Shown piece by piece: positions 6,043 to 47,038 of a stretch of DNA of 64,000 nucleotides (its first letter is position 1; every line of letters begins with the position of its first letter). The DNA is from Escherichia phage sutha: sequence record PV245934.1; one strand, 5' to 3'. The notes below the pieces were generated by a model that had not been told where the DNA came from, did no database searches, and saw only the letters and a list, made by a program, of their open reading frames with translations. The translations under genes were made by a program, and so were the position numbers.

Positions 6043-6057
6043 TCTTTGACGATTTAA

Positions 6058-6073
6058 GGGACCTTCGGGTCCC
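6058..6073 (+). terminator. intrinsic terminator GGGACC-ttcg-GGTCCC with UUCG tetraloop
   Basis: Perfect hairpin followed by T-rich tract directly after gene 23 stop. Confidence 0.75.
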
Positions 6074-6090
6074 TTTAGTTGTTTTTATGG

Positions 6091-6098
6091 TATAAATA
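6091..6098 (+). promoter_or_regulatory. late promoter TATAAATA (gene 24)
   Basis: Exact TATAAATA 28 bp upstream of gene 24 ATG. Confidence 0.7.
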
Positions 6099-6125
6099 AA
6101 TCATATAAACCAAAAGGAAAGCGCA

Positions 6126-9021: not shown

Positions 9022-10152
9022 TTATGGATAGGTATAGATGATACCAGTTTCTAAAGCAGTTTTATGAATGATGTATCCATTGCGCGATTCTTGAACATCA
9101 ACTTCTGGATAGTCTTTCATCATCTTCTGAAGAGTGTAACGATGCAAGTAGTACTTACTATCTGGGTCGTCAGTTTTCCAATCTTTACCTTCTTCAGTCA
9201 TTTTTTGGATTTCATCCATAACCCACCAACCACACCAGATGTAAGCTGAAGTGCGATGTGGAAGAGGATGAACATAAGGTAATTCACCTTCTGGTTCTGG
9301 AGCAACTTTATCAGTTACCTGAACTTGACCTTCTGCTGTGATAGTTTTGCTATCATAATCAGTGGCAGTAACAGTTGCAGTAACTTCAATAGTTTGACTT
9401 CCAATAGATGATGTATCAACAGTGTATACATTAGTTGACCCTTCTACTGGAGAAGAATCTTTCTTCCATGAATATTCGATTTGTGCTTCTTCCGGAGCAT
9501 CCGTAACGTTAGCCGTAAATGTAGCCGAAGCATCTTGCTGAACATTAATAGAAGGAGGAGTCAATGTAACCTGTGGATTCATTGTCTTCTTATTAACAGT
9601 CAGTGATACTTCATTAGAAGTAACTTCCTTTGCATCATAATCTGTCGCGGTTACTTGGGCTACGCATTTAATTCTTTTTACTCCACTTGTAGTTGGAGTA
9701 TAGCTAAATGTAGCGGAAGTTGCTTCACTAACAGGAGAATCATCTACATGCCACTGATACGTAGCAGATGCGCCTGATGGTTGAGAAGCTAAAGCAGCAG
9801 TAAATTCAACAGGAGTTCCAATCACTCCAGCAGCAGGACTATCAGGAGTTACAGCTAAGGTAGTTGTCTGTGTCTTATTTTGAACTGTGATAGTTGTACT
9901 AATTTCTGCTGTTTCAGCTTCGGTATCAGGAATAGTATTTGTTGCAACAACTTTAATTGTTTTTGTTCCAGCAGGTCCTTTTAACACATAATCAAAAGTT
10001 TCTGCCGATCCTACTTGAGGAGCATCGTCTACACTCCATGCATAGGTAATAGTTCCACCTCCAGTTTCACCACTGGGTGTAGCAGTAAACTGCTGAGTCT
10101 GATCTATAACTCCAGTAGGTGTTTTAGGAGTTATATCAACTGTAAAAGCCAT
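9022..10152 (-). CDS. hoc: head outer capsid protein Hoc, three Ig-like repeats
   Basis: 376 aa; three ~90-aa repeats each ending in ...TATDYD...; T4 Hoc size and position. Confidence 0.93.
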   Translation of the reverse strand: MAFTVDITPKTPTGVIDQTQQFTATPSGETGGGTITYAWSVDDAPQVGSAETFDYVLKGPAGTKTIKVVATNTIPDTEAETAEISTTITVQNKTQTTTLAVTPDSPAAGVIGTPVEFTAALASQPSGASATYQWHVDDSPVSEATSATFSYTPTTSGVKRIKCVAQVTATDYDAKEVTSNEVSLTVNKKTMNPQVTLTPPSINVQQDASATFTANVTDAPEEAQIEYSWKKDSSPVEGSTNVYTVDTSSIGSQTIEVTATVTATDYDSKTITAEGQVQVTDKVAPEPEGELPYVHPLPHRTSAYIWCGWWVMDEIQKMTEEGKDWKTDDPDSKYYLHRYTLQKMMKDYPEVDVQESRNGYIIHKTALETGIIYTYP

Positions 10153-10161
10153 AAGTTATCC

Positions 10162-10842
10162 TTATTTTAATGTTACGAAAGAAGAATTGCGTGTTTCACG
10201 AATTAGAACTGATCCGTCGCGATTAATGTAATAAATTAAGCTAAATAAAGTTTGATGTGCCGACGCGTGTTCAAAACTAGTTGGGTGAGATTTCCAATCC
10301 GGAGTTTCAGCAATCCATTGGTAAATCCACCAAGGAACAGTGCAGAATCCTGGATTTTTTCCAATCAGCTGAAGATTCGGACTAAAGTTTTCCGGAAGAG
10401 TAAATACAGACGGCTTTTCAGATTCAATAATCTCAGCTACAGCCTGCTCGAATTTTTCTTCAACAAAAGGAGTATCTTCAATTAAAACATCGGTATTTTC
10501 AGGAATTTTATCCGTTTCGACTACTTCAATTTTAATATCAGATTTAACCGGAGAATCAATCAGAAGTGCTGCTTCTGGATTGACTTCTTCATCGTCATAT
10601 TTTAATCCCTCTGCAGCATCAGCAGCATTAATTAAGTCTTTAATAGATAACCCATCAGTCTCTGGCATAGGTTCACTAGCGAGCTTCTGGAGGGCTTCTT
10701 CAATATCAATAACGATATTATCAAAAGATTTATTCTTTTTGACCTTTATACCAAACTGTTCAGCATATTCAGCTAATTTAGCCTTAGCTTCTTTATTATC
10801 ATCAAGAGCCTTCAGCTCTGCAATATAATCTTTATCTATCAT
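10162..10842 (-). CDS. inh: inhibitor of prohead protease gp21 (Inh)
   Basis: 226 aa, position between hoc and segE/uvsW as in T4. Confidence 0.8.
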   Translation of the reverse strand: MIDKDYIAELKALDDNKEAKAKLAEYAEQFGIKVKKNKSFDNIVIDIEEALQKLASEPMPETDGLSIKDLINAADAAEGLKYDDEEVNPEAALLIDSPVKSDIKIEVVETDKIPENTDVLIEDTPFVEEKFEQAVAEIIESEKPSVFTLPENFSPNLQLIGKNPGFCTVPWWIYQWIAETPDWKSHPTSFEHASAHQTLFSLIYYINRDGSVLIRETRNSSFVTLK

Positions 10843-10858
10843 AATATTTCCTCAGTAT

Positions 10859-10866
10859 AAATATAG
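10859..10866 (+). promoter_or_regulatory. late promoter TATAAATA upstream of segE-like ORF and uvsW
   Basis: Exact TATAAATA 26 bp upstream of the ATG at 10892. Confidence 0.6.
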
Positions 10867-10891
10867 ATATATTTATTACTCGGAAAATAGT

Positions 10892-11509
10892 ATGTACCAC
10901 TTTGTATATGAAACAACAAATCTAATAAACGGTAAAAAGTATATAGGAAAACACTCTACTGATGACTTGAATGATGGTTACCTTGGTTCCGGTAAGGCAA
11001 TTCAACAGGCTATAAAGAAATATGGTGAAAACAATTTCTCTAGAACAATACTAAAAGAGTTTAAAACTTCCGAAGAAGCGTACATGTATGAAGAAGAAAT
11101 TATAACTCCTGAACTAATAAAAAGCAAAAATTATTATAATATGAAACCTGGTGGAATTGGTGGAATTGTTATGACTGCAGAGGTTATAGCAAAGATGAAA
11201 GAATCTTCCGCTAAGAGATTTGAAAACTCACCGGGCACGGTATTAGGTACAACTTGTTACACCAATGGAACTAAAAATATTTTTATTAAACCTGGAGAAC
11301 TTGTTCCAGAAGGATTTGTAAAAGGAATGGTTCATCCTAATAGAAAGTCCAGAAAAGGATGTAAAGTCAAACCGACTACCACAGGAACTTTTTGGGTCAA
11401 TAACGGTGCAATAAATAAATTAATACATCCAGACGGTATTATTCCCGACGGATTTATTAAAGGTCGTCTCATGAAAAGAGACTCTAAAGGCAAATTTAGT
11501 AAGGCATAA
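10892..11509 (+). CDS. segE: free-standing GIY-YIG homing endonuclease (SegE-like)
   Basis: 205 aa; N-term YHFVYETTNLINGKKYIGKHS...YLGSG is a GIY-YIG domain; C-term repeated PEGFVKG/PDGFIKG modules; location hoc/inh-uvsW matches T4 segE. Confidence 0.85.
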   Translation: MYHFVYETTNLINGKKYIGKHSTDDLNDGYLGSGKAIQQAIKKYGENNFSRTILKEFKTSEEAYMYEEEIITPELIKSKNYYNMKPGGIGGIVMTAEVIAKMKESSAKRFENSPGTVLGTTCYTNGTKNIFIKPGELVPEGFVKGMVHPNRKSRKGCKVKPTTTGTFWVNNGAINKLIHPDGIIPDGFIKGRLMKRDSKGKFSKA

Positions 11510-11511
11510 TT

Positions 11512-13020
11512 ATGGATATTAAAGTACATTTTCACGACTTCAGTCATGTACGCATCGATTGTGAAGAGAGCACGTTCCACGAATTAAGAGATTTCTTTTC
11601 GTTTGAGGCCGATGGATATAGGTTTAATCCTCGCTTCAGATATGGCAACTGGGATGGACGAATCCGTCTTTTAGATTATAATCGTCTTCTTCCGTTTGGT
11701 TTAGTCGGGCAAATTAAAAAGTTCTGTGATAACTTTGGCTATAAAGCCTGGATTGACCCACAAATTAACGAAAAAGAAGAATTATCAAGAAAAGATTTTG
11801 ATGAATGGCTTTCTAAATTAGAAATCTATTCAGGAAATAAAAGAATTGAACCACATTGGTATCAAAAAGATGCAGTGTTCGAAGGATTAGTTAATCGTCG
11901 TAGAATTCTTAATCTTCCAACATCTGCAGGTAAATCTTTAATTCAAGCTTTGCTTGCACGTTATTATTTGGAAAATTATGAAGGTAAAATTCTTATCATT
12001 GTTCCAACAACTGCTCTGACAACTCAGATGGCTGATGACTTTGTTGACTATCGTTTATTCAGTCATGCAATGATAAAGAAAATCGGTGGTGGAGCATCAA
12101 AAGATGATAAATATAAAAATGATGCGCCAGTCGTTGTTGGTACATGGCAAACTGTAGTAAAACAGCCGAAAGAATGGTTCTCACAGTTTGGAATGATGAT
12201 GAATGATGAATGCCATCTTGCTACAGGAAAAAGTATTTCATCTATCATATCAGGTTTAAATAACTGTATGTTTAAATTTGGTTTGTCCGGTTCATTACGC
12301 GATGGCAAAGCCAATATCATGCAGTATGTTGGAATGTTCGGTGAAATATTTAAGCCAGTAACGACTTCTAAATTAATGGAAGATGGGCAAGTAACTGAGT
12401 TAAAAATTAATAGTATTTTTCTTCGCTATCCCGATGAGTTCACTACTAAATTAAAGGGAAAAACTTACCAAGAAGAAATAAAAATTATTACTGGGCTCAG
12501 TAAAAGAAATAAATGGATCGCTAAATTAGCTATTAAACTTGCACAAAAAGATGAAAACGCTTTTGTCATGTTTAAACACGTATCGCACGGTAAAGCTATT
12601 TTCGATTTAATTAAAAATGAATACGATAAAGTTTATTACGTATCAGGGGAAGTTGATACCGAAACACGCAACGTAATGAAAACCCTAGCTGAAAACGGTA
12701 AAGGAATAATTATAGTAGCTAGTTATGGTGTATTTTCTACTGGTATTTCAGTTAAAAATCTGCATCACGTTATTTTAGCACACGGTGTTAAATCTAAAAT
12801 TATTGTATTGCAAACAATAGGTCGCGTATTACGTAAGCATGGTTCTAAAACAATCGCAACGGTCTGGGACCTCATTGATGATTGCGGTGTTAAGCCAAAA
12901 TCTGCTAATACGAAAAAGAAATACGTTCATTTGAATTATCTTTTAAAACACGGCATTGATCGTATTCAGCGATACGCAGATGAAAAATTTAATTACGTAA
13001 TGAAAACAGTTAATTTATAA
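11512..13020 (+). CDS. uvsW: UvsW RNA-DNA and DNA-DNA helicase
   Basis: 502 aa; SF2 helicase motifs (Walker A PTSAGKS, DECH box MMMNDECH); T4 UvsW size. Confidence 0.93.
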   Translation: MDIKVHFHDFSHVRIDCEESTFHELRDFFSFEADGYRFNPRFRYGNWDGRIRLLDYNRLLPFGLVGQIKKFCDNFGYKAWIDPQINEKEELSRKDFDEWLSKLEIYSGNKRIEPHWYQKDAVFEGLVNRRRILNLPTSAGKSLIQALLARYYLENYEGKILIIVPTTALTTQMADDFVDYRLFSHAMIKKIGGGASKDDKYKNDAPVVVGTWQTVVKQPKEWFSQFGMMMNDECHLATGKSISSIISGLNNCMFKFGLSGSLRDGKANIMQYVGMFGEIFKPVTTSKLMEDGQVTELKINSIFLRYPDEFTTKLKGKTYQEEIKIITGLSKRNKWIAKLAIKLAQKDENAFVMFKHVSHGKAIFDLIKNEYDKVYYVSGEVDTETRNVMKTLAENGKGIIIVASYGVFSTGISVKNLHHVILAHGVKSKIIVLQTIGRVLRKHGSKTIATVWDLIDDCGVKPKSANTKKKYVHLNYLLKHGIDRIQRYADEKFNYVMKTVNL

Positions 13021-13033
13021 GGGCTTCGGCCCT

Positions 13034-13276
13034 TTGGAGAAAAAGATGTTACTAGAATTTAAACAATTTCTTTATGAAGCTTCTATTGATGAATTTATGG
13101 GTAAAATTGCCTCTTGTCAAACATTAGAAGGTCTAGAAGAACTTGAAGCTTATTACAAGAAAAGAGTTAAAGAAACTGAATTAAAAGATACTGATGACAT
13201 CTCTGTGAGAGATGCTTTGGCAGGAAAAAGAGCTGAATTAGAAGATTCAGACGATGAAGTAGAAGAAAGCTTTTAA
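13034..13276 (+). CDS. UvsW.1 small acidic protein
   Basis: 80 aa ORF directly after uvsW, as T4 uvsW.1. Confidence 0.75.
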   Translation: MEKKMLLEFKQFLYEASIDEFMGKIASCQTLEGLEELEAYYKKRVKETELKDTDDISVRDALAGKRAELEDSDDEVEESF

Positions 13277-13330
13277 ATTAAAAAGGCCCAACCAAAAAGG
13301 AAGGGCCAAAACTATAGACTAAAGGTCACA

Positions 13331-13498
13331 CTATAGCAAAAGTTGTGTTTCATTTAATTGTTCTTCCGAACTTTCTGAAACTGGTAGTTCTTTAATGTAA
13401 TTATAACAAGGCCCAGGATGTACAGGACCTTTGTCTGTTTCAACAACCAATGCAGAATCGATTGGAGTTTTACAGACAACACAAATCTTATCTGACAT
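13331..13498 (-). CDS. small Cys-containing protein (uvsY.-2 position)
   Basis: 55 aa ORF found by hand (MSDKICVVCKTPIDS...), below the 60-aa track cutoff. Confidence 0.5.
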   Translation of the reverse strand: MSDKICVVCKTPIDSALVVETDKGPVHPGPCYNYIKELPVSESSEEQLNETQLLL

Positions 13499-31639: not shown

Positions 31640-31872
31640 AGTACGCCATACACCCTTTGTGCTTCAACTAATCCATCAAAATCCAGTTTAAGATGTGTTA
31701 TTTGGTCACCATCACCTGGATTCACAATTACTAATACTGAACGAGGAGTTTCGGTAATAACACGAACCGATGTTTCAGGAAATCGTTCAGAAACCTTATT
31801 TACCAATTCCTGAGCAAATAGTTTAACTTTTTCTTGGAATTCTCTAGTAGTAATTGGTTTTTCACTTAGCAT
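31636..31872 (-). CDS. hypothetical protein (cd.2 position)
   Basis: 78 aa ORF. Confidence 0.6.
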   Translation of the reverse strand: MLSEKPITTREFQEKVKLFAQELVNKVSERFPETSVRVITETPRSVLVIVNPGDGDQITHLKLDFDGLVEAQRVYGVL

Positions 31873-32393
31873 GTTGATCCCAGCTCCTTACTTTCAACGT
31901 TTTTAACTAATTTGACAGAAACTAATTCGGCATCTTGGGTAATCATTACCGGGCCTTCTTCATACTCTTCAAGATATTCTAGAGCTTTCTTTTTAGCTTC
32001 TTCCTTCGTATCAGTTTGAGCATAGATATAAAACATACAACCAGTAATACCTACTACTTTCCACTTAATTTCTTTATCAGTTTTAATTTCAAATTTACTG
32101 ATAGAGTCATCTTTTTGAACTTCTTCGAAAAAAGAATATTCTAACATATAAGCAATTGAAAATAACGGGCTAACTTTATAAGATTCGCCCATTACATCAA
32201 CAGCTTTATACCAGCAATCGTCAATTTCGCGTTTAATGCTAATAACATTTTTCGCAGGATCTATTTTTACTTTAAATGAATTTTCCCCAATAAACTGAGC
32301 AATTCGTTTATTAGCCCCGCAAGTTTCATTAAAAATATCTTTATATCCAGCTTTAAAGCGATAAACCTTATCTTCTTCAAACCATTTGCTCAT
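31866..32393 (-). CDS. hypothetical protein (cd.3 position)
   Basis: 175 aa ORF with early promoter upstream. Confidence 0.65.
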   Translation of the reverse strand: MSKWFEEDKVYRFKAGYKDIFNETCGANKRIAQFIGENSFKVKIDPAKNVISIKREIDDCWYKAVDVMGESYKVSPLFSIAYMLEYSFFEEVQKDDSISKFEIKTDKEIKWKVVGITGCMFYIYAQTDTKEEAKKKALEYLEEYEEGPVMITQDAELVSVKLVKNVESKELGSTC

Positions 32394-32934: not shown

Positions 32935-34349
<1,415 letters not shown>

Positions 34350-37396: not shown

Positions 37397-38566
37397 TTAA
37401 AAATATTTTTTAAAACTCATCATAACTTTATCATCAACATCATTATCAATCTGTGCTACAAGGTAAGATGACAGTTCTACTTCTTGTGGCGCGGATTGAA
37501 CATTATCAGAATTAAGATATTCACGAATCCAAGGATACGGATGTTTAACCGGAGCATCAGTAATTGGGCATGGAAGACCACACTGTTTCATACGAGATAC
37601 AGTTAAGTAATCAATAAAGCTCCACATGCTATTTGTATTTAATCCAGGAACATCGCCATCTTTAAATAAATGAACTGCCCAGTCTTTTTCTTGACGGTTA
37701 ACTTCCATGAAAATATCAACTGCTTCTTGTTCACACTCTTGGGCGATTTTAACCCATTCATCACCATCAGTGCCAAGTTGAAGTTGACGAATAATATATT
37801 GGGTGCCTTTAAGGTGAAGCTGCTCATCACGTGCAATGAACTTCATAATCTTGGCATTACCTTCCATAATTTCCATGTTCTTATGGAAGTTAAAGGTACA
37901 TGCGAAAGATACATAAAAACGAATAGCTTCCAATGCGTTGATTACATGAAGGCAAAGATAAAGAGATTTCATTAGTGCCCGTTTAGTATATTCAACAACT
38001 TTGCCTAGCTCTTCTTTACGAAATCCTTCTGATAAAATTCCTTCATAATCTTCAACCGCATTCTGATATTCACGAGTCTTAACTAGAACATCATCATAAT
38101 AGCGACCAATAGATTCAGCACGTTTCATGATAGCTTTATCTAATACAATCTCATCAAATACCTTTGATGGATCAGTATAAAGATTTCGCATAATATGAGT
38201 ATATGAACGGCTGTGAATAGTTTCGCTAAAAGTCCATGTAGCAACCCATGTATCAAGACTTGGGTCTGAAATTAACGACATAAGTACAGCAGACGGCGCA
38301 CGACCCTGAATGCTATCCAAAAGTGATTGATACTTCAGGTTATTAGTAAAAATATCTTGCTGATATTGAGGAAGCTTGTTAAATTGTGCAGCATCCATCA
38401 TTAAGTTTACTTCTTCAGGACGCCAGAAAAATGATAACTGCTTTTCGGTTAAATCTTCAAAAACTTTATGGCGTTGAATATCATAACGCGCAATACCAAG
38501 ACCTGAACCGAAGAACATAGGTTCTTTTAAAACATCAACTGGATTTGTATTAAAAACTGTGCTCAT
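37397..38566 (-). CDS. nrdB: ribonucleotide reductase small subunit NrdB, uninterrupted (no intron)
   Basis: 389 aa continuous ORF MSTVFNTNPVDVLKEPMFFGSGLG...KKYF with di-iron radical signature; T4 nrdB is split by an intron, this copy is not. Confidence 0.95.
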   Translation of the reverse strand: MSTVFNTNPVDVLKEPMFFGSGLGIARYDIQRHKVFEDLTEKQLSFFWRPEEVNLMMDAAQFNKLPQYQQDIFTNNLKYQSLLDSIQGRAPSAVLMSLISDPSLDTWVATWTFSETIHSRSYTHIMRNLYTDPSKVFDEIVLDKAIMKRAESIGRYYDDVLVKTREYQNAVEDYEGILSEGFRKEELGKVVEYTKRALMKSLYLCLHVINALEAIRFYVSFACTFNFHKNMEIMEGNAKIMKFIARDEQLHLKGTQYIIRQLQLGTDGDEWVKIAQECEQEAVDIFMEVNRQEKDWAVHLFKDGDVPGLNTNSMWSFIDYLTVSRMKQCGLPCPITDAPVKHPYPWIREYLNSDNVQSAPQEVELSSYLVAQIDNDVDDKVMMSFKKYF

Positions 38567-38617
38567 AAATTTTCCGCTTAGTTAATAGATAGTGACTCGT
38601 CCGTGAGTCAAATTATA

Positions 38618-40882
38618 TCATAATTTACAGGATGAACAATCTTCAGCTTTTGGAGTTTCTATTTCATAATCATCAGTACCAGAACCATCGCGGGTATTAT
38701 GATAATAGAAATTTTTTCCGCCAAAATACCAAAAATACAAAAGGTCATCAATCATTATTGACATTGGAACCTTTCCTTTTGGAAAAATCTGCGGGTCATA
38801 ATATGTATTTGCTGAAGCTGATTGACATACCCATTTAAGCATAATAGCTACCTGCGTAAGATAAGGTTTATTACCTTTCTTAGCTAATTTCCACGTATAA
38901 TCATAGAGGTCTATGTTATGCTCAATATTGGGCACGACTTGATTAAAGGAACCCTCTTTTGATTCTTTAACAGAGACTGGTCCACGTGGAGGCTCGATAC
39001 CGTTTGTACTGTTAGAAACTTGGGAAGATGACTCACATGGCATAAGTGCTGATAATGTGCTATTACGGATGCCAAAGAGCTTAAGGTCTTCCCGCAGCGA
39101 CGACCAGTCACAAACGTATTTTGGAGCTGCGATTTGGTCAATCTTTTTATTGTACCAGTCGATAGGTAATTCGCCTCGAGACCAACGAGTGTCTGAATAA
39201 TATTCGCAAGGTCCTTTTTCTTTGGCGAGCTTAATGGATGCTTTAATGAGTCCATACTGCAATCTCTCAAATAGTTCATGTGTTAAATCGTTAGCATCTT
39301 CATAAGAAGCAAAGTTACTTGCCAGCCAAGCTGCATAGTTAGTAACACCTACGCCAAGGTTTCGACGCTTTTTAGCTTTTTCTGCTTCAGGAACTGGATA
39401 TCCTTGGTAATCCAAAAGATTATCAAGAGCGCGAACTTGAACTTCTGCTAATTCATTAATTTTATCTTGGTCTTGCCAATCGAAGTTATCCAACACGAAT
39501 GCAGATAACGTACACAATCCAATTTCAGCATCAGGACTATTCACATCATTTGTTGGAATAGCAATTTCACAGCACAAGTTACTCTGACGAATAGGTGCCT
39601 TTTCACGAATAAATGGAGTATAGTTATTCGTATTATCAATGAACTGCACATAAATCCTTGCTGTTCCTGAGCGTTCAGTCATTAGCAATTCAAACAGTTC
39701 ACGTGCTTTAATACGCTTTTTACGAATATTAGGGTCTTTTTCTGCGGCTTCATATAATTCACGGAAACGGTCTTGGTCTTTAAAATAAGAATAATAAAGC
39801 TCGCCACTCATTTCATGCGGACTGAACAAAGTAATGTAGTCGTTCTTTCCAAAACGTTCCATCATCAAATCATTCAGCTGAACGCCATAATCCATATGAC
39901 GGATACGGTTTTCTTCTACGCCTTTGTTATTTTTCAAAACGAGAAGATTTTCAACTTCCAAATGCCAAATAGGATAATAAGCAGTAGCAGCGCCGCCACG
40001 AATTCCACCCTGTGAGCATGATTTAACAGCAGTCTGAAAATGTTTCCAAAAAGGAATAACACCAGTATGGCGTACTTCACCTGTACCAATCTTAGAACCT
40101 TCGGCACGAATCATACCAACGTTAATACCAATTCCAGCGCGTTTGGAGATATATTCAACAATTGAAGCGGAAACCTTATTGATAGACTTCAGCGAATCAC
40201 CTGCCTCAATAACAACACATGAACTAAACTGTCGAGTCGGAGTACGACAACCAGCCATAATAGGAGTTGGTAATGAAATTTGTCGAGTAGATACTGCTTC
40301 ATAAAAACGAATAACATGTTTTAATCTATCAACAGGTTCATCTTGATGTAATGCCATTCCAATAGTCATAAATGCAAACTGTGGAGTTTCATAAATTTGA
40401 CCAGTGGTTTTATCTTTAACGAGATATTTTTCTTTTAATTGCATCGCCCCGGAATAAGTAAATTCCATATCCCGCTCGTGCTTAATTTTTGATTCTAAAA
40501 ATGTAATTTCTTCTGCTGAATATTTTGACAGCAGTTCAGGGTCATATTTACCTTCATTTACACAGTAAGAAATATGGTCAATAAATGAACGTGGTTCATA
40601 TTGCCCATAAACATGCTTACGAAGAGCAAACATTAAACAGCGAGCGGCTACATATTGATAATCAGGCTCTTCAACTGAAATAGAATTCGCAGCAGCCTTA
40701 ATTACAATGGTTTGAATGTCATCAGTGGTCATTCCATCACGGAGATATGATTTAATATTTTCATATAATTCATAAGGATCTACAGATGTTCCTTCGGCTG
40801 CCCAAGATAAAACTTTAATAATTTTTTGTGGATCAAAGCTCTGAGAAACACCACTACTTTTGATAACATTAATTAATTGCAT
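38618..40882 (-). CDS. nrdA: ribonucleotide reductase large subunit NrdA
   Basis: 754 aa from MQLINVIKSSGVSQSFDPQKII... matching T4 NrdA by recall; track ORF has a 32-codon in-frame extension; AGAGGA Shine-Dalgarno before ATG at 40882. Confidence 0.95.
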   Translation of the reverse strand: MQLINVIKSSGVSQSFDPQKIIKVLSWAAEGTSVDPYELYENIKSYLRDGMTTDDIQTIVIKAAANSISVEEPDYQYVAARCLMFALRKHVYGQYEPRSFIDHISYCVNEGKYDPELLSKYSAEEITFLESKIKHERDMEFTYSGAMQLKEKYLVKDKTTGQIYETPQFAFMTIGMALHQDEPVDRLKHVIRFYEAVSTRQISLPTPIMAGCRTPTRQFSSCVVIEAGDSLKSINKVSASIVEYISKRAGIGINVGMIRAEGSKIGTGEVRHTGVIPFWKHFQTAVKSCSQGGIRGGAATAYYPIWHLEVENLLVLKNNKGVEENRIRHMDYGVQLNDLMMERFGKNDYITLFSPHEMSGELYYSYFKDQDRFRELYEAAEKDPNIRKKRIKARELFELLMTERSGTARIYVQFIDNTNNYTPFIREKAPIRQSNLCCEIAIPTNDVNSPDAEIGLCTLSAFVLDNFDWQDQDKINELAEVQVRALDNLLDYQGYPVPEAEKAKKRRNLGVGVTNYAAWLASNFASYEDANDLTHELFERLQYGLIKASIKLAKEKGPCEYYSDTRWSRGELPIDWYNKKIDQIAAPKYVCDWSSLREDLKLFGIRNSTLSALMPCESSSQVSNSTNGIEPPRGPVSVKESKEGSFNQVVPNIEHNIDLYDYTWKLAKKGNKPYLTQVAIMLKWVCQSASANTYYDPQIFPKGKVPMSIMIDDLLYFWYFGGKNFYYHNTRDGSGTDDYEIETPKAEDCSSCKL

Positions 40883-40937: not shown

Positions 40938-41669
40938 ATGAAATCTGGAATATATGCTATTATAAACACTAAAACCAATAAGCACTATATAGGAAGTGCA
41001 ATTAATTTTGAAGAACGATGGAAACGACACTTCAAAGATTTAGATAATGGAAATCATCATTCAATAAAGCTGCAACGTTCTTATAATAAGCATGGGAAAG
41101 ATGCTTTCGTATGTAAAATCATAGAAGAACTTCCATACGAAAAATCTATCATTATTGAACGTGAAAATTATTGGATACATGAATATGACTCAAAGGAAAA
41201 TGGGTATAATATAGCAGACGCATCGTTTGGGGATACCTTATCTCATCACCCAAGAAAGCAAGAAATCCTTAATAAAATTTCAAATGCAATTAAAAATAAT
41301 AATTCAAAATTATCACCAGAAGAACTTAAGCAAAAACATGGTAGACCTAAAGATATTAAAGGTAAAACTATAGAAGAACACTATGGGTTAGATCGTGCTA
41401 TAGAAATAAGCAAAAAGTTCCAAGAAAGAAACGCTGCACTTAATATGAAAGGCATCAATAATCCATATTATGGACAGACACATACCAATGAAGTTAGAAA
41501 ACGAATTTCTGACTCACAAAGAGGTAAAAAGAAACCCCATCTAAGAGTAAGTATAGATGGGGTAGAATATCCAACAATAGCAGAAGCTGTGCGTCAAACC
41601 GGAATAAGCAGAAAACTTATATCTAAAAGATGTGCTCTAGATTGTTGGGAATCATATTTATACTGCTAA
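40938..41669 (+). CDS. free-standing GIY-YIG homing endonuclease, I-TevI-like catalytic domain with NUMOD/HTH C-terminus
   Basis: 243 aa; first ~100 aa ([21 protein letters not shown]...RWKRHFKDL...[12 protein letters not shown]...IIERENYWI...[13 protein letters not shown]) closely parallel I-TevI; C-term [22 protein letters not shown] and [22 protein letters not shown]; antisense to flanking nrdA/td. Confidence 0.85.
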
Positions 41670-41903
41670 AGTTCTACATTCGTCATATTGTTTTTCCGTT
41701 AAAACAGTAATATCATAATAACAATCTGAAGAAGTTTTAACTGTAGAAATTTTATTATCAAAATACTCACGAGTCATTTTATGAGTATAATATTTTTTGC
41801 CATAAATGACAATAGGCTGTTCTGGTCCTGGAACTTCTAACTCGCTTGGATTAGGAAGTGTAAAAAGAACTACACCAGAAGTATCTTTAAATCGTAAAAT
41901 CAT
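41658..41903 (-). CDS. hypothetical protein between td and nrdA
   Basis: 81 aa ORF, convergently overlaps the endonuclease 3' end by 12 bp. Confidence 0.6.
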
Positions 41904-41926
41904 ATATCCTCACAATTAATAATTAA

Positions 41927-42238
41927 TTACACCGCCATTTTTCCTTTAATAGAAGGGTGTGATTCGTAACCTTTAAGAACGAAATCTTTAGGCCTGAGTT
42001 TAAGAATGTATTCCAATTGTTCTTTAGTAGAAAGATAGCGGAATTTATAAGGCAATCCGCCTATTACCAGTTCACAAAGCTCTTTAGGTTCACGACGCAA
42101 AATTTCTTTACATTGTTCTACGTGATTCATATAGATATGAGTATTACCGCCAGAAAATATCAAATCTCCTGGAATAAGATTACACATCTTAGCTACAATA
42201 TGAACTAACGCAGCATATGATGCAATGTTGAACGGTAG
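41927..42238 (-). CDS. td: thymidylate synthase exon 2
   Basis: Encodes LPFNIASYAALVHIVAKMCNLIPGDLIFSGGNTHIYMNHVEQ...KGKMAV, matching the C-terminal 103 aa of T4 TS; preceded by intron 3' end ...CATAATG. Confidence 0.93.
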   Translation of the reverse strand, partial: LPFNIASYAALVHIVAKMCNLIPGDLIFSGGNTHIYMNHVEQCKEILRREPKELCELVIGGLPYKFRYLSTKEQLEYILKLRPKDFVLKGYESHPSIKGKMAV

Positions 42239-43254
42239 CATTATGTTCAGATAAGGTCGTTAATCTTATCCCGGAATTATATCCAGCTGCATGTCACCAT
42301 GCAGAGCAGACTATATCTCCAACTTGTTAAAGCAAGTTGTCTATCGTTTCGAGTCACTTGACCCTACTCCCTAAAGGGATAGTCGTTAGGCATTTATGTA
42401 GAACCAATTCCACTTATCAGATTTTACACGGTAAGTAACTAATCCTGATGAAATTTCAAAATGTCTAGCCGCATCGGCTGCACATTCAAAAATAATCCCA
42501 TCGCATGAAATCTTTTTGATGTTAGCTGGCTTTTTGCCTTTCATCTTTTCAGATAGTTTAGTTTTAGTTTTTTCTGAATGTTTGTGATTAAAGAACGGGT
42601 TATTTTCACCTGAACGTTTTCGGCACTTTCCACAAGTATCGGCCGAAGATGGTATGCGAACACCGCATTTACAAAACTTGTGGTTTTCTGGATTCCATCG
42701 GCCATTTTTACTTCCGTGTTTACCATAAAGAGCTTTCCGACCATCAGGACCAAGCTTAAGCATCTTAGCTTTAACAGTTTCAGCTCGTTTCTTAGCAATT
42801 TCTTCTTTTAATGGATGATTTGAAAGCACATCGCCAAAAGACGCATCAGCAATATTATATCCATTAATTTTAGAATTTAGCTCTTTAATCCAAAAATTTT
42901 CTCGTTCAATAATCAAATCTTTCTCATATGGAATTTCTTCCAGTACAGAGCATTCAAAAACATTACCATGTTTATTAAAAGACCTTTGAAATTTTATAGA
43001 AGAGTGAACACCGTTTTCAAGGTCTTTAAAATGTCTCTTCCATCTTTTCTCAAAATCTTTAGCACTTCCAACATACACTTTACCGTTTAAAGTGTTTTTA
43101 ATCTGATAAATTCCGCTTTTCATAAACACCTCTTTTTATATAGAAGTATTTATTAAAGGGTAGTCCTACAATTTAGCACGGGATTGTCTACTAGAGAGGT
43201 TCCCCGTTTAGATAGATTACAAGTATAAGTCACCTTATACTCAGGCCTAAATTA
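42239..43254 (-). mobile_element. group I self-splicing intron of td carrying I-TevI
   Basis: 1016 bp between exon 1 end (...VDVFLG, GGT then TAA in intron) and exon 2 start (CTACCG); 5' intron sequence TAATTGAGGCCTGAGTATAAGGTGACTTATACTTG as recalled for T4. Confidence 0.9.
42386..43123 (-). CDS. intron-encoded GIY-YIG homing endonuclease I-TevI
   Basis: 245 aa from [35 protein letters not shown]...; zinc finger CKCGVRIPSSADTCGKC; C-term HTH ...VTYRVKSDKWNWFYINA; matches I-TevI by recall. Confidence 0.93.
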   Translation of the reverse strand: MKSGIYQIKNTLNGKVYVGSAKDFEKRWKRHFKDLENGVHSSIKFQRSFNKHGNVFECSVLEEIPYEKDLIIERENFWIKELNSKINGYNIADASFGDVLSNHPLKEEIAKKRAETVKAKMLKLGPDGRKALYGKHGSKNGRWNPENHKFCKCGVRIPSSADTCGKCRKRSGENNPFFNHKHSEKTKTKLSEKMKGKKPANIKKISCDGIIFECAADAARHFEISSGLVTYRVKSDKWNWFYINA

Positions 43255-43802
43255 ACCTAAGAAAACATCGACACTGCGTTGGTACCATTGTAAATCCAAA
43301 TATCCATTACGCACATTAAACTGATAAAACATATGACAAGGTGGTAATGCCATTTGCTTAAGTTCTGCCGGATTCCATGCTGAAACAATTTGACGTCTAT
43401 CATTTGGCAGTTTTTTAATACGTTCAACAACTTCTATAATTTGATCTACACCACCAAAATCGCGCCACTGTTTTCCATAAATTGGACCAAGTTCACCGCT
43501 ATGGTATCCTAAATCTTTTGCTTGATTTTCGTAATTTTCATCCCAGACTGTTTTGCCTTGAATTAATGAATCATGTTGAATTAATCGCAAATCATTGACA
43601 TTTGTGCTTCCCGATAAAAACCATATTAGCTCAGCAATACAGGCTTTCCACGCTAATTTTTTAGTTGTTACCGCAGGAAAACCTTTAGTTAAATCCCAGC
43701 GTAATTTAGTACCAAACAAAGCAATTGTTCCTGTGCCTGTTCGGTCATCGGTTTCGTAACCATTTTCCAGGATATCTTTAATTAAAAATTGGTATTGTTT
43801 CA

Positions 43803-43803
<1 letters not shown>
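43255..43803 (-). CDS. td: thymidylate synthase exon 1
   Basis: 183 codons from ATG at 43803 (MKQYQFLIKDILENGYETDDRTGTGTIALFG...[30 protein letters not shown]); the track ORF begins at an upstream TTG. Confidence 0.93.
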
Positions 43804-44835
<1,032 letters not shown>

Positions 44836-46939: not shown

Positions 46940-47002
46940 TTTTATTTCCTTTTTAATTTAATTAACAGTTGGTGCTATGACGATGTATGACCTCATAGCT
47001 GG
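46940..47002 (-). promoter_or_regulatory. gene 32 translational operator: A/U-rich leader plus pseudoknot-forming GCUAUGA...UCAUAGC element
   Basis: Minus-strand 5' [66 protein letters not shown] read directly; matches my recollection of the T4 gene 32 autoregulatory operator. Confidence 0.65.
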
Positions 47003-47022
47003 TCAGTGAGATAATTATAATC

Positions 47023-47030
47023 TATTTATA
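47023..47030 (-). promoter_or_regulatory. late promoter TATAAATA upstream of gene 32
   Basis: Plus tatttata is minus TATAAATA, ~85 bp upstream of gene 32 ATG. Confidence 0.55.
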
Positions 47031-47038
47031 ATAAGCAA

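Follow-up and report, generated by a model that had tools for sequence, protein, structure and literature searches.

The segE gene and its neighbors

At the locus studied here, which lies in a 64,000-nt stretch of Escherichia phage sutha DNA (PV245934.1; the whole stretch is called the window below), a plus-strand ORF encoding 205 aa (10892..11509) begins with ATG and runs full length, without a frameshift, to a TAA stop codon at 11507-11509. It is preceded by two minus-strand genes, hoc (9022..10152) and inh (10162..10842), and followed, after a gap of 2 nt, by the ATG (11512) of the plus-strand helicase gene uvsW (11512..13020). The first-pass annotation of this DNA had described a 205-aa plus-strand ORF between a minus-strand hoc-inh block and uvsW, with 2 bp from its stop to the uvsW start, and the coordinates bear this out. 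The start that it gave, 10859, is not that of the ORF (10892) and falls within a promoter-like octamer, TATAAATA, at 10856-10863. The features discussed below are the following.

10856-10863 (+): T4-type late promoter octamer TATAAATA, exact match, 28 nt upstream of the segE ATG
10877..10870 (-): AATAAATA, a 7/8 late promoter match upstream of inh
10880..10891 (+): left junction and segE ribosome-binding region (CGGAAAATAGT), from an alignment of the window, T4, RB27, and SV76
10892..11509 (+): segE coding sequence, free-standing GIY-YIG homing endonuclease, 205 aa
10892..11161 (+): GIY-YIG catalytic domain, about aa 1-90
11177..11227 (+): linker helix, about aa 96-112, from AlphaFold (AF2) helix H96-112 and an alignment with the NBG1 and KP182 homologues
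11237..11326 (+): repeat module 1, aa 116-145, TVLGTTCYTNGTKNIFIKPGELVPEGFVKG, from self-alignment; AF2 strands 121-124 and 129-132
11375..11464 (+): repeat module 2, aa 162-191, TTTGTFWVNNGAINKLIHPDGIIPDGFIKG, from self-alignment; AF2 strands 167-170 and 175-178
11410-11417 (+): AATAAATA inside segE, a 7/8 match, 94 nt upstream of uvsW; the same octamer is found in T4
11512..11646 (+): recoded uvsW 5' end, linked to segE, presumed right part of the mobile cassette, from a comparison with RB27

Alignment to T4 SegE (NP_049795 / AAD42658), a check proposed in the first-pass annotation, was carried out by BLASTP: 201 of the 205 residues of the window protein are identical (98%), without gaps (E = 2e-153), and the two genes differ at 14 of 618 nucleotides. 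The N-terminal 95 residues are exactly the same. All four substitutions (A96T, E97D, T120K, and H179Q; window residue first, then T4) are conservative to moderate and lie outside the catalytic domain, in the linker and the C-terminal, presumed DNA-binding part of the protein. The order inh / segE / uvsW is shared by the window and the T4 annotation, in which segE, on the same strand as uvsW and 2 nt before it, is labeled "site-specific DNA endonuclease; GIY-YIG family." In profile searches, the protein matched the Pfam family PF19835 (SegE_GIY-YIG) with 36.5 bits, above the cutoff of 25, and the PHROG group phrog_314, "homing endonuclease" (E = 2.9e-43). The generic GIY-YIG family PF01541 reached 21.5 bits, slightly below its cutoff of 22.6, and the sole match in an NCBIfam search was a sub-threshold one to "group I intron endonuclease" (33.6 versus a cutoff of 56). 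The window and T4 align collinearly, with about 95% nucleotide identity, and the phage records closest to it, at about 98%, are Tequatrovirus genomes. We conclude with high confidence that ORF 10892..11509 is T4 segE, an intact free-standing GIY-YIG homing endonuclease gene at its canonical position in a Tequatrovirus genome. The earlier label "SegE-like" was correct and can be sharpened: with 98% identity and the same locus as in T4, the protein is an orthologue of T4 SegE itself. None of this is new: work on T4 has described the gene, its locus, its GIY-YIG type, and its homing behavior since the 1990s.

Two observations concern the neighboring genes. The hoc product is 376 aa long in the window and in T4, and 472 aa long (1419 nt) in KMB39 and RB27. 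In the window, uvsW proper encodes 502 aa and is followed by a separate short ORF, uvsW.1 (13034..13276), a split that agrees with the corrected T4 sequence (PMC1524935); the T4 reference records contain a single fused uvsW of 587 aa, with a note on "sequence discrepancies."

Nuclease domain, linker, and C-terminal repeat

The N-terminal GIY-YIG motif claimed for the ORF was found as FVY (aa 4-6) and YIG (aa 17-19). Among 73 homologues, Y6, Y17, G19, D28, Y30, G32-S33-G34, G45, N83, and G87-G88 are invariant, while H21, K43, and E67 are nearly so; the window protein keeps every one of these positions, including Y6, Y17, E67, and N83. The alignment of the 73 homologues was also used to build an AF2 model, which replaced a single-sequence run of too poor quality (pLDDT 44.9). 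The model reached a pLDDT of 86.7 overall and 94-98 across the first 80 residues, and places the motif tyrosines on a beta-hairpin (strands 2-10 and 16-23). When the model was used as a Foldseek query, the best three matches were all I-TevI catalytic-domain entries, with modest E-values of 3.6e-3 or weaker. The first-pass annotation had made its reading depend on a predicted GIY-YIG fold; both the model and the Foldseek search point to this fold, and the N-terminal domain of SegE is accordingly described here as a predicted GIY-YIG alpha/beta domain. A sequence search of the PDB with the single protein returned only a spurious tail-tube match (E = 0.003), and a search with a 4-sequence profile returned nothing relevant; no solved structure of a close SegE relative is detectable by sequence search.

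I-TevI, the T4 td intron endonuclease and structural archetype of the GIY-YIG family, is intron-encoded, whereas SegE is free-standing. BLASTP aligned the two proteins (E = 2e-7) with 28% identity over the N-terminal ~135 residues, the first ~90 of which form the catalytic domain, and paired Y6 with Y6, Y17 with Y17, E68 with E75, and N83 with N90. We take the catalytic residues of I-TevI to be R27 (the canonical Arg), E75 (Glu), and N90 (Asn). E67/E68 and N83 of SegE align with the last two of these. Opposite R27, the BLASTP alignment has a 9-residue gap in SegE: the I-TevI helix segment with R27 is absent, and no Arg of SegE is aligned there. Since T4 SegE, whose N-terminal domain is identical, is reported to be active, we regard the missing counterpart of R27 as a probable peculiarity of the family and not as a defect of this copy. 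The two enzymes differ at their C termini as well: SegE has two beta-hairpin/PxGFxKG modules, and neither NUMOD3 nor the I-TevI DNA-binding domain was detected in it by Pfam.

The heptads PEGFVKG (aa 139-145; nt 11306-11326) and PDGFIKG (aa 185-191; nt 11444-11464), which the first-pass annotation had singled out as repeated modules, each form the end of a ~30-aa module that occurs twice (aa 116-145 and aa 162-191). Local alignment of one module to the other scored 69, compared with 21.6 +/- 4.6 for shuffled sequences, none of 1000 of which scored as high. Judged by this comparison, the C-terminal tandem repeat is real, and the heptads were correctly seen as parts of it. In the AF2 model, each module consists of a beta-hairpin followed by P-x-G-F-x-K-G. 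The modules presumably bind DNA. At the linker position, longer homologues contain GKxHSEETKxK repeats, which look NUMOD3-like, and SegE retains only the helix; PF07460 (NUMOD3) is present in many SegE homologues.

Module 2 is the copy that is conserved in distant homologues. Its invariant positions in the alignment with the NBG1 and KP182 homologues are G165, W168, N170, N171, G172, P185, G187, K190, G191, and R192. A Seg-like protein of a Klebsiella phage has this copy only, and the PHROG group phrog_10820, "HNH endonuclease," matches SegE aa 154-199, i.e., module 2. Because of this lone copy and the HNH match, module 2 appears to be a portable unit common to different endonuclease families. 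A Pfam search with the last 96 residues of SegE found no family even at E <= 10, and the C-terminal modules had no significant PDB match. Given the lack of a Pfam match at that threshold and the HNH-endonuclease PHROG on module 2, we tentatively raise the possibility, doubtful as we consider it, that the ~30-aa modules (beta-hairpin plus P-x-G-[FW]-x-K-G) are an undescribed DNA-binding repeat of GIY-YIG and HNH homing endonucleases, distinct from the NUMOD/I-TevI type. If true, this would be a small addition to the modular DNA-recognition toolkit and would leave the identity of segE unchanged.

Distribution, insertion boundaries, and transcription

The first-pass annotation had also proposed looking for the gene in related phages. 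About 500 phage records with matches of at least 90% identity to inh and uvsW were counted. The whole inh-segE-uvsW locus is present in 158 of these ~500 T4-like records (about one third); in ~340 others inh directly adjoins uvsW, and the aligned span is 616 nt shorter. A tblastn search with SegE yielded 158 records with at least 95% identity, 14 with 60-80%, and a remainder below 60%. Near-identical copies scattered sporadically among close relatives are typical of a mobile homing endonuclease gene.

A more distant homologue occupies the same inh/uvsW slot in Mosigvirus vB_EcoM_NBG1 (AWM11756, 243 aa; L008 3001-3732), with TATAAATA upstream. It is 48% identical to SegE by tblastn (61% over aligned columns), conserves both C-terminal modules, and is 38 aa longer, with a linker insert, GKHRSEETKRK, that looks like a NUMOD3 motif. 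The NBG1 gene has a perfect TATAAATA in its own 3' end, 61 nt before uvsW, whereas segE of the window has only AATAAATA. The NBG1 uvsW is about 77% identical to that of the window. The inh/uvsW slot has been either long occupied or repeatedly invaded. In some relatives, another homing endonuclease gene is located between uvsW and uvsW.1, as in vB-Eco-KMB39 (KMB39; 230 aa, L002 5318-6010); its product was considered as a SegE paralogue and rejected, since it shows no BLASTP similarity to SegE. With endonuclease genes found at both inh/uvsW and uvsW/uvsW.1, the uvsW neighborhood is therefore a repeated landing site.

On the left side of segE, the intergenic sequence of T4, RB27, and SV76 is identical to that of the window up to ~10879, and homology with segE-less phages stops at about 10879/10880; of the intergenic region of RB27, only the initial 37 nt are matched by segE-bearing phages. 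In RB27, which is segE-less, TATAAATA is located 29 nt before the uvsW ATG, compared with 28 nt before the segE ATG in the window. The same octamer at this distance from uvsW in segE-less phages means that the insertion of segE separated the late promoter of uvsW from its start codon. A Shine-Dalgarno-like AAGG ahead of uvsW sits within the 3' end of segE.

On the right side, uvsW itself is altered. Over its first 120 nt, the window and RB27 share 73-77% identity, which rises to 87% over nt 121-180; the remaining gene shows identities of 0.90-1.0 per 60-nt segment, about 96% overall. The N-terminal protein sequence of UvsW is nearly unchanged despite recoding of the first ~135 nt. The 5' allele of the window is 99.3% identical to that of T4, and alleles of this type (at least 95% identity) were found in 157 records, compared with 158 records carrying segE. 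By these counts the recoded uvsW allele travels with segE, and the mobile unit appears to span about 10880 to about 11646. The matching sequence in segE-less phages presumably holds or adjoins the SegE target, and the combination of segE with a recoded uvsW looks as expected at a homing endonuclease target site.

The inh-segE spacer (10843-10891, 49 bp including TATAAATA) is identical to that of T4, and in Yersinia phage fPS-2 the site equivalent to the octamer carries the annotation "predicted late promoter." Matches to TATAAATA number 20 in the window, with 9.3 expected by chance, so that the motif by itself says little, and the argument is carried by position and conservation. In the window and T4 alike, the octamer before segE is the sole perfect one upstream of uvsW. 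A late promoter for segE at this site, as first proposed from the motif, is plausible and conserved in position; Edgell et al. (2010, PMC2988022) assign segE a promoter in the non-coding sequence ahead of it. On the opposite strand, AATAAATA at 10877..10870 is probably a divergent late promoter for inh-hoc. The X14869 annotation lists putative minus-strand promoters in the inh-segE intergenic region, and a late promoter upstream of inh is mentioned by Edgell et al. (PMC2988022). The 49-bp spacer is thus probably a divergent late-promoter region, serving segE/uvsW one way and inh-hoc the other way.

Within segE, we found no second perfect late promoter, only 7/8 matches, and no TGCTT box of a middle (MotA-box) promoter. 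Scans of 10100-13400 revealed fewer sigma-70 promoter-like sites than expected by chance and no terminator-like site between the TATAAATA promoter and uvsW. Of the 7/8 matches, AATAAATA at 11410-11417 might be considered a candidate "embedded" promoter for uvsW, its sequence being weak evidence; promoters for the downstream gene embedded within segE are described by Edgell et al. (PMC2988022). UvsW is expressed from a late promoter (PMC3016281). The identical TATAAATA that segE-less phages have 29 nt ahead of uvsW, the lack of a terminator, and the late promoter of UvsW support a shared late transcript, which we consider likely for segE and uvsW. To this extent the first-pass claim that uvsW is carried on the segE transcript stands, with the embedded promoters of the literature as a caveat.

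Homing and alternative readings

The behavior of segE in T4 is documented. The gene is described as free-standing, of the GIY-YIG type, and located between inh and uvsW, with "uvsW" as its target and homing demonstrated (Edgell et al., 2010, PMC2988022). Homing into RB30, with endonuclease-dependent non-reciprocal transfer in mixed infections of T4 and RB30, was reported by Kadyrov et al. (1997), as summarized by Brok-Volchanskaya et al. (2008, PMC2330249) and cited in PMC2988022, and the non-reciprocal marker transfer that the first-pass annotation ascribed to this locus is hence established literature. The same two sources describe site-specific cleavage of the empty allele and recombination-dependent homing with co-conversion in T4 (PMC2988022, PMC2330249). 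As to the cut site, these accounts vary between the intergenic region and the uvsW 5' end (PMC2988022, PMC2330249).

For the window, a corresponding course of events can be proposed. Late in infection, transcription would start at TATAAATA (10856-10863), originally the uvsW promoter, and produce an mRNA with segE first and probably uvsW second. The protein made from it would combine an N-terminal GIY-YIG nuclease, a helical linker, and, at the C terminus, two ~30-aa modules with a presumed DNA-binding role. During co-infection with a segE-less relative, SegE would cut the inh-uvsW intergenic region or the uvsW 5' end of that relative. The break would then be repaired by homologous recombination off the segE-bearing genome, and segE would be copied together with flanking markers ("intronless homing," co-conversion). 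Synonymous recoding of the carrier's own uvsW 5' end plausibly lessens self-cleavage and would in this way protect the carrier. The abstract of the 1997 Kadyrov study reportedly places the site at the 5' end of RB30 uvsW, with T4 DNA being cut less efficiently; such a site would fit the recoded uvsW region in the window. By analogy with the T4 enzyme, to which it is 98% identical, we infer that the window copy is probably active.

Other T4 enzymes behave in a similar way. SegF (gene 56), SegG (gene 32), and SegB (tRNA cluster) are, like SegE, products of intergenic free-standing GIY-YIG genes; they cut the allele that lacks the gene and spread with co-conversion of the flanks, leading to marker exclusion (PMC2988022, PMC2330249). 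They differ from SegE in their loci and in their target sequences.

Could segE be kept mainly because it benefits the phage, either by serving as a competition weapon that excludes the markers of co-infecting relatives or by having become necessary for uvsW expression? The Shine-Dalgarno-like AAGG of uvsW is inside segE, and the only perfect late promoter for uvsW is upstream of segE; such embedding favors retention of an endonuclease gene (Edgell et al., PMC2988022), and marker exclusion by Seg enzymes is documented (PMC2330249). However, this view extends the homing model and is no alternative to it. The two thirds of relatives without segE express uvsW, which makes segE dispensable for uvsW function generally, and the segE region is described as non-essential (PMC2330249). 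We therefore consider a mainly beneficial role unlikely.

The gene could also be a decaying or inactive copy that became fixed in the lineage and lost its cutting activity, since degeneration is the expected fate of homing endonuclease genes that have run out of empty sites. Four residues in the linker and C-terminal part do differ from T4 SegE, and the canonical Arg cannot be aligned. On the other hand, the ORF is complete and uninterrupted by any frameshift, all family-conserved positions are kept, and the N-terminal 95 residues are the same as in the biochemically active T4 enzyme. Moreover, about two thirds of T4-like records still offer an empty site, which keeps selection for homing in place, and the 158 copies with at least 95% identity fit recent spread. 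Loss of activity is very improbable on these grounds. That the ORF is another Seg paralogue (of the SegA-D, F, or G type) or an I-TevI-like enzyme at the segE locus can be dismissed: Seg proteins have the N-terminal domain in common and the window does contain a second, I-TevI-like GIY-YIG gene (40938..41669), but full-length identity to SegE of 98% rules this out, I-TevI being only 28% identical over the N-terminal ~135 residues and other phage homologues at most 80%. An intact segE that spreads by homing thus remains our preferred reading.

The second GIY-YIG gene of the window (40938..41669, plus strand) is a free-standing I-TevI-like ORF of 243 aa. With nrdA on one side and the td region on the other, it occupies the position of T4 nrdA.1 and runs antisense to its neighbors. 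Its product matches the Pfam family GIY-YIG with 58 bits and NUMOD3 above the cutoff, and the I-TevI DNA-binding domain below the cutoff; the ORF has about 70% nucleotide identity to the 5' part of T4 I-TevI. The td intron/I-TevI region itself is present at 41678-43804. Compared with T4, the window is without segD (genes 23/24), the nrdB intron with I-TevIII, nrdB.1 and mobE, and segG (genes 32/59), these absences falling at 6053-6114, 37899-37902, 38566-38622, and 47002-47038, while segE is kept. By this comparison, the set of homing endonuclease genes is mosaic relative to T4. Two minus-strand ORFs, 31866..32393 (175 aa) and 34029..34349 (106 aa), are contained in insertions without a T4 counterpart; one is located between cd.2 and cd.3 and the other between pseT and pseT.1.

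The identification of segE is of value for annotation, as it adds a T4-like phage with an intact segE, and is of little weight as a discovery. Structural work might be worthwhile only for the uncharacterized C-terminal repeat, which is also the one loose end with any novelty. Viewed as a whole, the locus is a clear textbook case of a free-standing homing endonuclease gene settled between the promoter and the start of another gene: segE would take over the uvsW promoter, supply the uvsW ribosome-binding site, and travel with its recoded target.
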